From: Ureaplasma parvum serovar 3 str. ATCC 27815
Lineage (GTDB): Bacteria; Bacillota_I; Bacilli_A; Mycoplasmatales; Mycoplasmoidaceae
Reading direction: 5' to 3'
Assembly (NCBI RefSeq): GCF_000019345.1
Contig: NC_010503.1
Span: 180,001-212,000, forward strand
DNA length: 32,000 nt
A program made the position numbers. Position 1 is the stretch's first letter; each line of letters opens with the position of its first letter. Shown here piece by piece: positions 27,001 through 30,000 of the stretch.

Positions 27001-30000
27001 TAAAACAACACGGTCTCAAATAGCGTGTTTAATAGCAGGTGCAAAAACAAGTTCAGAACCATACATATTATATTGAAACGCAATGCGTTTAAATGTAGCG
27101 TTAAATGTTTCATAAAAATAACGCAAATGAGCATTATCAATATAAATTACAATCTTAACGTTTACTTCTTGTTGTTTTTTAATAAACCAACGCACAACTA
27201 ACTCAATTTGTTGCTCGCTTGTTAGTGGATTAACATTGTTGTTATAAACCATTTCATCTAAAATCTCAATTCCATTTTCTTTTGAAATTGAACCAAATAA
27301 GCACGCAGTATCTGATGATGAACTACTTGTTCCATCTCCCCAGTCCATACCACCAAAAAACTGCATTGCATAATTATCATATTCGCCATATGGTTCATGC
27401 ATTACGCTTAAACTTCGTGCATAAATAGCACCTTCAACACTCCCACTTAATCCCAAACTAATTACACGATATTTAGAATAATCAATATCTTTTCATCATT
27501 CAAACTGCTCAATTTCTTGTTGTGATGTAAATTTATTCGCACGATATGTACTTCTTAAAAATAATTTTTTATCTACAACGCTATATTCATAATATGGCTT
27601 TTGTTGGATTGAGAATTCGTTTTCTGCTAAATGATTATTAAAATTTTCAATATATCAGTGTTCACTTGTTCAAGGATTAGATGCAAAAATAGATACGACC
27701 TGCGTATCTTTGGTACCCCTAAGTGATTGCTGTGAGTTTTTAACTAAATTAAAATCTAATTGTGACGCTTCTTCAAAAAACGCAAAAACATAACGTGCTT
27801 GCGTTCACAAACGAAATCCAACCTTAGCACCTTTGTTAATGTTATTACGTGTCTCATTTAATGCTTCAAACATTACAGTTCAACCATTAATAATAACAGT
27901 ACGTTCTGAATGGTTAATCTTAGCAAATTTTAATAATTGCTTTTGGTCTAAAAAATTTAAATAGTCGCTAAAAATTTTTTTCGCATCAGATATATTCTGA
28001 CGAAAAACATATATTGCGTTTTGCTGTTTAATCGCAACAAGTGATGACAAAAAATCTAATGTCGCAAAAGTCTTACCACTACTTCGTCCACCTAATAAAT
28101 TAATTTCATTAAATGGTATTGGCAACTTTTTGGCTACAAACTCAACTAAATCACTATAGAAACCAAAACATTCTATAAAATCTAGTTTTATTCTCATAAC
28201 GATATCAAAAAGCGTTAAACTAAAAACGATTAGTCTAACCTTTTTTTATTAAAATAAAGTTTTAACTATTACATTATTTTAAGTAGCTTTAATAATAACC
28301 ACTTACCACGTAAAAACTTTTAAAAATATAATGTGGCCTACTTTTGGTTATGTCTCGTGCTTTTATCACCAAAGAGATAAGACTAATAAATAATTTTCAC
28401 ACACAGATACTTGACAAACGTGCTCTTAAAGCTAACTTTGTAGCTATTATCATACGACTTATTTTTGTAAGCGGCAATATTCAGGTGCTTTAAAAGGATA
28501 TCTAACATATCTAAAAAACGTTGCTCTTTGTTCGTTTTTTCTAGTCATAAATATTATATCACATTTATAAGTTTTTTAATGGTTAATTTGTTATTATCAT
28601 CAACTTTTTCAAACGTTATTGTTGTATCTTCAATATCTGTACTTTTTTGCTCATTTGCTAACTCAAAATCTAGACGTTTAAAATATTCTTGCGTTCTAAA
28701 CTTACGCAATCCTTGGTTGTTTATTTCTTTATCATACGATGCGTTTCGTCCCAGCAACTCATTTAAAGCCATTCTAAGGCCGTAATTAGCCTTGGTAATG
28801 TATTCATACCTTTTTTTGTTAAACTCGTCTCTTTGCGTGCTTAAATTAACTCACACGCCCCAATTTATGCCTAAGAATTCAAGCAAAGCACTCAAATTAC
28901 ATAAATCTAGGTTTTTAGTAGTCATAACCAAAGTGTAAAAGTCATTGATTTTTAACTGCAGTTCTTGTAATTGTTTTAGTTCGTTTCTTTTCATCATACA
29001 AAAATTATAACCACATCGCACATAAAATTTAAATTAGATCATCGTTTAGTTTATCAATCAATAGTACAATCTAAAACGTTATCGTAAGGAAGTAGCGTAA
29101 TATACGCATATTGAGGATTATCGCAAAAGCGATAATACGAAATAGAAGTATATGAAGATACTTTCTTATGATAACTAATATCATTTTTTTAAAAGACTTT
29201 TAAAGTATATATACGATATCGTAGTCTTTTAAAAAAATATAATAAATATAAATAAGATAAGAAATAATAAATATGATGTATAAGAATAAATATACGAATG
29301 ATAATGAAGTATATTTATGAATTATATATTATATTTTTATTTTTTATTTTGTTTATATTTTAATTTATTACGCGTGAGAGAAATTGACAAAAATAAATTG
29401 ACAACAATAAAAAAATGTTGTTATAATATTCTTGTCGTTTCTAAATTGCTAGAAACCAAACAACATAAGCCAAGGTTCAATAATCAATATTATTTTTCAT
29501 TTTATCTTTTAAATCAATTTCTAAACCATTAGGATTTAATAATTGATTCTTTGTTAACGATTTATGGACAACTTGTGTTATTCCGTCTTTTTTATTAATT
29601 TCAATATCAAATGTTAATACAGGTTGATTATCTTGAAAAGAATTTAATATACTAAAATTTTGTAATTTAATGTTAATTTTTTTATTAGCTTTATCAATTA
29701 TTGTATTTAATTCTGCTTGTTGAATATATTGGTTTAATAATTCTTGTTGGTCTTCTTGTTTAAAATCAAATTTAATTTCATTATTATTTAAAGTAAATTT
29801 TGATATTTTATAGTTAATATTAGATGCTAAGCCATTTAATTTACCTGTAAGTATTTTTTTATTTGCATCAAATACTAATTCAGTAGCACTAATAGCAGAA
29901 GCGTCATCATTAGCACTATCTTTAACTTCTAAAACAAAATCTTTTTTATTAGCATCTGCTAATTTAAATTTACTAAATGTAACTTCAATAGTAGCAGTGC

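Follow-up and report, generated by a model that had tools for sequence, protein, structure and literature searches.

How is the integrase gene of a prophage transcribed when it abuts one prophage boundary, and what would be served by a consensus-like promoter at the other boundary that points out of the element? These questions are raised by a prophage of Ureaplasma parvum serovar 3 str. ATCC 27815, contained in the 32,000-nucleotide (nt) stretch of contig NC_010503.1 (positions 180,001 to 212,000) that we analysed as a whole (the window, to which coordinates refer unless a contig is named). The prophage is the published "20-kb region" UU145–UU170, which splits UU171/UU144 in the phase-variable UU172 element (Momynaliev 2007; PMC3047005; PMC3511179; PMC3599477; PMC13375369). 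Published work takes this region to be either inserted phage DNA or a putative pathogenicity island (PMC3047005; PMC3511179; PMC3599477; PMC13375369), and no Ureaplasma phage has been isolated to date (PMC13375369). The window DNA has 25.7% GC, and genetic code 4 was required to call open reading frames (ORFs); table-11 ORFs came out fragmented. Judging from its sequence and setting, the site at 29398–29427 is probably the early promoter of the temperate phage UU145–UU170, with the phage attachment site (attP) inside its leader, and integration would sever it from the integrase gene. The sequence data establish the promoter sequence and its rarity, the two att cores, an attP junction in public contigs and the conservation of the promoter at several insertion sites.

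The outward promoter lies on the + strand within the non-coding stretch 29022–29479. It has a −35 box TTGACA at 29398–29403, an 18-nt spacer, a TGt extension at 29419–29421 and a −10 box TATAAT at 29422–29427, the end of which is 52 nt from the core of the right attachment site (attR), and it is oriented towards that core, out of the prophage. With the TG extension it matches the consensus at 12/12 positions, and it was the top site of 20000–32000 in a consensus scan. The preliminary description of this stretch, made from the sequence alone, had reported a near-consensus promoter with tandem boxes, an 18-nt spacer and TG-t-TATAAT reading outward across attR, and we find the sequence as described there. 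The window contains two 12/12 sites, at 29398 (+) and 15381 (−), both in prophage non-coding DNA, whereas simulations with a first-order Markov model predict 0.12 sites of this kind in 32 kb when both strands are counted, or 0.005 with TG. Extended −10 boxes of the type TGNTATAAT are not elevated in number (7 found versus 5.9 expected), and 6/7 of them fall in prophage non-coding DNA, which makes up ~8% of the window; thus, the outward site appears to belong to a coherent class of phage promoters rather than being a chance match. The TGTTATAAT box of this promoter also recurs at two more prophage non-coding sites, 14630 and 14756. In sequence, location and conservation the site has the properties of a sigma-70-type extended −10 promoter, which suggests that it is active, and transcription is predicted to start at ~29434. 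A literature search for U. parvum RNA sequencing or transcription start-site studies gave no paper on U. parvum among those listed.

Two direct AAATTGACAA boxes with a 14-nt period precede the −10 region on the + strand (29381–29390 and 29395–29404), the second of which includes the −35 TTGACA. The suggestion that this duplicated box forms a repressor- or activator-binding array is not established, as no regulator was recognised and AAATTGACAA is not enriched across the window (10 matches with at most one mismatch versus 17.9 expected), leaving an operator family unsupported; the duplication and its conservation are what might still hint at such an array. The complement of the upstream box (TTGTCA) could also act as the −35 element of a divergent − strand promoter, for which there is a 9/12 match at 29390–29362.

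Assembled public data contain the two prophage ends in joined form. In L001, a 20,401-nt Logan contig (ERR11318959), TerL, TerS, the promoter region and the integrase gene are contiguous: by blastn, L001 positions 1–4670 correspond to window 24824–29494 and positions 4656–10525 to window 9012–14895. The 15-nt overlap of these segments is the att core, which reads ATAATCACGATTATT at attL (9012–9026), identical to the attP core, and ATAATCAATATTATT at attR (29480–29494). From the sequences, crossover must take place within ATAATCA (29480–29486). ATAATCA direct repeats and an in-silico deletion that match this core have been published (PMC3047005), and the integrase RipX binds the att repeat probe AACAAGGTTCAATAATCACGATTATTAAA in gel shifts in vitro (PMC3599477); this probe is the attP sequence. 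L002, a contig from another run (ERR11318982), begins in the phage arm and passes through the core into the integrase gene, and in both contigs the promoter, the att core and the integrase gene are contiguous and co-oriented. Because the att identity (7–22 nt) is shorter than the assembly k-mer, taking the Logan k-mer length to exceed it, the junction should derive from reads of circular, concatemeric or tandem phage DNA. L001 comes within ~20–30 nt of a full phage unit, as for a circular path, and this length together with the attP junction fits a circular molecule. Another contig, L030 (OBBO01000059.1, JGI, 20,734 nt), stops exactly at the core. Taken together, unit-length contigs and attP junctions in public data indicate that the Ureaplasma phage exists as excised, circular or concatemeric DNA.

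The integrase gene (int, ripX or UU145; Pfam Phage_integrase) encodes 255 amino acids (aa) on the + strand, from ATG 9063 to a stop at 9830. Its ribosome-binding site, GGAG at 9050–9053 (AGGAG in relatives), lies 9 nt upstream of this ATG. The start had been placed earlier at ATG 9048, ~22 nt from attL; that codon is not conserved, reading AGG in L001, L002 and L010, and we therefore assign the start to 9063, which is 36 nt from the core. The three close integrase homologues in the protein collection (P0001–P0003; 99%, 88% and 87% identity), of which the 99% homologue is encoded on L001, are likewise 255 aa long and start with MINKF. At the other end, 46 nt separate the predicted transcription start at ~29434 from the core, with no ORF or terminator in between, and any target of the promoter therefore lies across att. 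In the joined form the leader would be ~97 nt long (61 nt to the core end and 36 nt beyond), and attP lies in this non-coding leader, overlapping no credible ORF.

In L001 the outward promoter is the sole strong + strand site upstream of the early operon, which in the window has its coding part at 9063–14629 and its terminator at 14693–14724 (+; code-4 ORFs, Pfam, PHROGs and terminator scans). This operon encodes Int, a PD-(D/E)XK-like exonuclease, small ORFs, RecT, a 229-aa ORF, a 153-aa ORF and a RuvC-like resolvase. The first + strand terminator predicted past the promoter in L001 is at L001 positions 10322–10353, beyond the resolvase gene, and the predicted transcription unit therefore spans ~5.7 kb. 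The earlier proposal that circularisation would align the promoter, attP, int and the early operon is thus matched by L001 and L002, in which these elements are contiguous and co-oriented, with no + strand terminator predicted before the operon end.

Within the predicted leader, an inverted repeat GTTTCTA-N6-TAGAAAC (29438–29457, +), at about +5 to +24 of the transcript, may act as an operator or fold as a hairpin in the leader; in L001 and in L022 one of its arms is mismatched. Leader folds were not significant (z-scores −1.3 and −1.7). Pairing of TTGTCG at the 5′ end of the predicted transcript (29431–29441) with CGACAA beside the int ribosome-binding site (9050–9061), which could form in the joined form only, was considered and rejected (z −1.7, no covariation).

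For int in the integrated state, the promoter scan left only two candidates, both on the + strand and both spanning the host/phage junction at attL: TTAACA-16-CATAAT at 8989–9016 (10/12) and TTAACA-16-TAAACT at 9004–9031 (9/12). Matches of this quality number 65, compared to 60.1 ± 7.2 expected in shuffled sequence. From the core to the ATG, the 36 nt contain no more than the ribosome-binding site, and other attL-type flanks (L003, L010) likewise have chance-level matches only. A predicted intrinsic terminator with a 12-bp stem (8240–8268, +) stands 3′ of the tRNA-Ile and tRNA-Ala genes and thus disfavours read-through from them into int, a route that the preliminary description had raised. 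Its claim that integration leaves int and the early operon without any promoter goes further than sequence can show: nothing like the outward promoter was found there, but the 10/12 and 9/12 matches at attL, although at chance level, may still initiate transcription. It is defensible to say that integrated int has no promoter sequence comparable to the outward one, and on our reading the gene would be nearly silent in the lysogen.

The outward promoter is retained where the phage sits in other host sites. L001 and further lysogens of the serovar 3 type carry it unchanged. U. urealyticum serovar 10 carries a near-identical copy (CP001184.1), and its promoter (L011 and L013) has, as in a contig seen in 18 samples, one change, giving a −35 of TTGACG and a second box of AAATTGACGA; there it lies at attR in another host site, facing a 201-codon fragment of an ORF that it would read in the sense direction. 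At a third site (L022, L023 and L030; core ATAATTTCGATTATT), which is occupied by a divergent phage variant, the −10 and both boxes are intact, and in L022 45/47 promoter positions match the window, compared to 81% and 77% in the upstream and downstream flanks and 85% when the entire non-coding region is taken. The promoter at this site faces a 546-aa helicase-like gene ~170 nt away. A single distant relative was found, L021 (TerL 58% identical). Its non-coding sequence is unrelated, and yet it carries an outward TTGACA-17-TAAAAT ~260 nt from its TerS-like gene; the contig ends at an att-like palindrome, TGATAATAACTATTATCA. Across these contigs, position and orientation of the putative promoter are kept while the host context varies, and its constant partner would be int in the joined form.

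Two further observations concern these contigs. In L022 (8660–8775, −), and also in L023 and L030, the attR core sits at the tip of a near-perfect ~21-bp hairpin made of phage arm and host flank; this 116-nt stretch folds at −32.4 kcal/mol (z −6.6) and is followed by a run of U. In a lysogen at the third site an outward transcript would meet this terminator-like hairpin, which attP would lack provided that its P′ arm matches that of L010. Separately, contigs L003–L009 carry an 87%-identical integrase (L003 1062–1829) with a ATAATCACGATTATT core upstream, outside any prophage; in L003 it adjoins an exonuclease-like gene and apparent type I restriction-modification genes (one product matches N6_Mtase), and the locus could be a remnant or a different small element. 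A more remote Int relative, P0004 (28% identical), proved to be an hsdS shufflon recombinase and was uninformative on phage layout.

We propose the following scheme for the phage. On circular DNA, newly infecting or excised, transcription from the promoter would cross attP, enter int and continue over the exonuclease, RecT and resolvase genes as far as the terminator at 14693–14724, so that transcripts crossing attP are expected in this form. RipX-mediated integration would then cut the transcription unit within its leader, leaving the promoter stranded at attR and facing host DNA, and leaving int and the early operon at attL with chance-level promoter matches. The outcome would be a self-ending pulse of integrase upon integration and a quiet early operon in the lysogen, and rare excision would restore the circle and, with it, strong re-expression of the early genes. 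In the lysogen studied here, the promoter would read antisense through the UU171 fragment and on toward UU172, with no + strand terminator predicted from 29434 to UU172. This antisense orientation toward the invertible UU172 segment had been noted before, and is confirmed by the ORFs and by PMC3047005.

That circularisation can bring a promoter back to its genes is established for two conjugative elements, ICEclc and Tn916 (reviewed in PMC5812530). In ICEclc of Pseudomonas knackmussii B13, an outward promoter, Pcirc, becomes fused upstream of intB13 upon excision (Sentchilo et al. 2003; PMC5812530). The Ureaplasma arrangement is similar in that recombination at att places a strong, seemingly constitutive outward end promoter upstream of a tyrosine integrase gene. 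ICEclc, in contrast, is conjugative and proteobacterial and has a mapped Pint, whereas the element here is a tailed prophage of a Mollicute, known from sequence, in which no proximal promoter is recognisable; moreover, a whole 5.6-kb early recombination operon follows int here, not int alone. In Tn916, promoterless transfer genes are transcribed across the joined ends in the circular form only (Celli and Trieu-Cuot 1998; PMC5812530). The likeness is that genes promoterless when integrated are read across joined att only in the circle, which for Ureaplasma is a prediction, and the difference is that Tn916 disconnects its conjugation genes while xis-int keep their promoters, whereas in Ureaplasma int itself would be disconnected.

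Two phage systems also tie gene expression to the attachment site. Mycobacteriophages BPs and Brujita, which show integration-dependent immunity, have their attP within the coding sequence of the repressor, and the protein that is made changes upon integration (PMC4557955; PMC3694055). They share with the Ureaplasma element a compact switch centred on int, in which the position of attP links phage expression to integration; the Ureaplasma attP, however, lies in a 5′ leader, not in a repressor gene, and no repressor gene was found. The sib site of phage lambda is an RNA-processing site downstream of int that acts post-transcriptionally (retroregulation). In lambda, as in our scheme, attP separates int from a cis-acting element and int expression differs between the integrated and non-integrated states, but the separated element in Ureaplasma would be an upstream promoter.

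Published descriptions of UU145–UU170 (PMC3511179; PMC3047005; PMC3599477) make no mention of the outward promoter, of its link to int or of DNA in the attP form. This appears to be the first such case found in a Mollicutes prophage, and it is unusual in that int and the whole early operon seem to depend on a promoter across att. If correct, the scheme offers a concrete, testable model for the switch between a silent prophage and an active circle, and the strong, compact promoter could serve as an expression signal in Ureaplasma genetics, where tools are scarce. The joined attP DNA in public data suggests that the element is probably still mobile; a role as a pathogenicity island has been discussed for these 20 kb. 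In serovar 3 the promoter is aimed at a phase-variable surface-antigen locus and, from this position, might influence antigen expression.

Several points weigh against our proposal. Promoter activity, transcripts crossing attP and the near-silence of int are all deduced from DNA rather than RNA. In Mollicutes the −10 box is the main promoter determinant, and AT-rich DNA often gives rise to spurious initiation. A weak int promoter at 8989–9016, at 9004–9031 or at the P′ arm TAAACT, which is also present in attP, is possible in DNA of 26% GC. Were int fully silent in the lysogen, excision could not begin, and some expression must therefore exist; for these reasons (−10-driven promoters, AT-rich DNA and the logical requirement of excision for int) low-level int transcription is likely. 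The attP junction itself could stem from tandem prophages rather than from free circles. Finally, a constitutive-looking promoter with no recognised regulator leaves the lysis-lysogeny decision and the silencing of the late operon unexplained.

Residual int expression would have a dedicated source if, as in ICEclc, a weak or regulated int promoter at or beside attL, either hybrid or within the P′ arm, governs excision and the outward promoter boosts int after circularisation. The two attL matches (10/12 and 9/12) could supply such a promoter, although they are no commoner than in shuffled sequence and, as hybrid sites, depend on host DNA that varies with the integration site. The P′ arm TAAACT box is retained in the window, L001 and L010, and absent from L003. 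Excision logically demands some int expression in the lysogen, and ICEclc pairs Pint with Pcirc in exactly this manner (PMC5812530); on balance, we regard a dual-promoter arrangement as unlikely, while taking it as the main alternative. We think it quite improbable that the promoter acts mainly in the lysogen on host genes by attR, either antisense to UU171 with read-through into UU172 or in the sense direction elsewhere. The lack of a predicted + strand terminator from 29434 to UU172, the sense reading into the 201-codon ORF fragment in serovar 10 and the helicase-like gene ~170 nt away at the third site are all compatible with such a role, but the targets differ at each site, the reading in the window is antisense, a very stable hairpin with a terminator-like U run stands at the third-site attR, and the sole invariant downstream gene is int in the joined form.

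A role confined to the leader is very unlikely in our judgement. Here the promoter would make a short non-coding leader, and its transcription through the Int-binding core or the inverted repeat at +5 to +24 would influence site-specific recombination at att rather than express int; the first 61 nt of the predicted transcript do include both the inverted repeat and the att core, and RipX binds att repeat DNA (PMC3599477). No terminator is predicted after the leader, however, the hairpin is not intact in L001 or L022, and the fold z-scores of −1.3 and −1.7 are weak. It is harder still to credit that the site is a functionless consensus match in AT-rich DNA: promoter-like matches of at least 9/12 are indeed as common as in shuffled sequence, but a 12/12 site with TG is expected only 0.005 times per 32 kb, this one is kept across phage variants with a counterpart in the relative with 58%-identical TerL, and it shares its non-coding location with other extended −10 boxes. 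An early promoter with attP in its leader thus remains our favoured account of 29398–29427.

Pfam and PHROGs scans of the early products and most late products (the 108-, 747- and 1165-aa late products lay outside these scans) recognised no repressor, Cro, helix-turn-helix protein or excisionase, and this negative is weak because many of the scanned prophage proteins have no annotation. Antisense ORFs in the late operon were considered as hidden regulators and rejected as low-complexity artefacts. The finding of no repressor or excisionase, and of no other strong + strand promoter, is consistent with repressor-less lysogeny. With attP between the single early promoter and the whole int/recombination operon, integration itself would switch the early programme off, and the choice between lysis and lysogeny would depend on topology alone, a minimal switch in a host with a minimal genome. 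Occasional int expression through noise would then restore the circle, whose strong promoter would express int and the early genes anew and commit the cell to phage production. We offer this extension of the scheme as speculation, and consider it decidedly doubtful.

The prophage as a whole is ~20.5 kb long and consists of the + strand early operon, a 0.9-kb non-coding centre and a − strand late operon (28997–15533) that encodes TerS-like and TerL proteins, a collagen-repeat protein and membrane proteins. Pfam matches were obtained for Phage_integrase, both domains of the terminase large subunit and RecT, and the RuvC-like resolvase and the exonuclease were recognised in PHROGs/Pfam scans. With an integrase, att repeats and packaging genes, the element is, by its gene content, a temperate tailed phage with a tyrosine integrase. 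Two unannotated late proteins of 454 and 395 aa are candidates for portal and capsid, respectively, named from gene order alone. The 747-aa late protein (16931–19174, −) contains a collagen-like Gly-X-Y run, as in phage tail fibres.

Comparisons with known phages gave little. A megablast search of the prophage against GenBank phages returned no match, tblastn with TerL returned only terminases at ≤25% identity, and IMG/VR scans with Int, TerL and the promoter DNA returned no match. A scan of genome contigs with TerL also gave no match, and the back-translated patterns containing Trp used there probably miss TGA codons.

Directly upstream of the TerS-like gene and divergent from the outward promoter, a candidate late or packaging promoter TTTAAA-18-TATAAT occupies 29004–29033 (−). 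The 356-nt gap between the TerS-like and TerL genes (28198–28561) is locally GC-richer and carries a − strand extended −10 box, TGATATAAT, at 28561–28553; this gap is a possible location for a further late promoter or for an RNA element.

To the left of the prophage are the host genes smc, ftsY and a large lipoprotein gene, then tRNA-Ile and tRNA-Ala, according to the code-4 ORFs and an Rfam search of the window that found these two tRNAs only. The split host gene flanks the prophage on both sides, with the 3′ part (UU144 fragment) at 8328–9011 (−) and the 5′ part (UU171 fragment) at 29495–30040 (−; code-4 ORFs; PMC3047005), and a lipoprotein gene at 30417–31916 lies to the right of the UU171 fragment. 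The split gene runs in the same direction as the late operon, and from 29441 to 29021 the − strand has no predicted terminator. The arms of the UU172 promoter segment are at 30075–30148 and 30819–30892; if this segment inverts, a host promoter would run through the UU171 fragment into TerS/TerL, converging with the outward promoter.

The non-coding centre holds the second perfect promoter of the window, TTGACA-17-TATAAT at 15381–15353 (−). It is followed by a strong ribosome-binding site, GGGGGTGA, a 22-codon hydrophobic ORF, MELSDLIVIILTIIQILISLRK, at 15298–15230 (−) and a terminator at 15203–15179, and a + strand extended −10 box at 15091–15099 faces this unit. The arrangement at 15179–15381 looks like a type I toxin-antitoxin or small-peptide module, going by its layout, with similar copies in L010 and next to the prophage of serovar 10 (L011). 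Boxes of the types TGTTATAAT and TGGTATAAT at 14630, 14756 and 15411 (15411–15419, +) each precede hairpins or a terminator (14693–14724; ~15500–15530). These features suggest that the centre, in which Rfam found no match, may encode several small RNAs.

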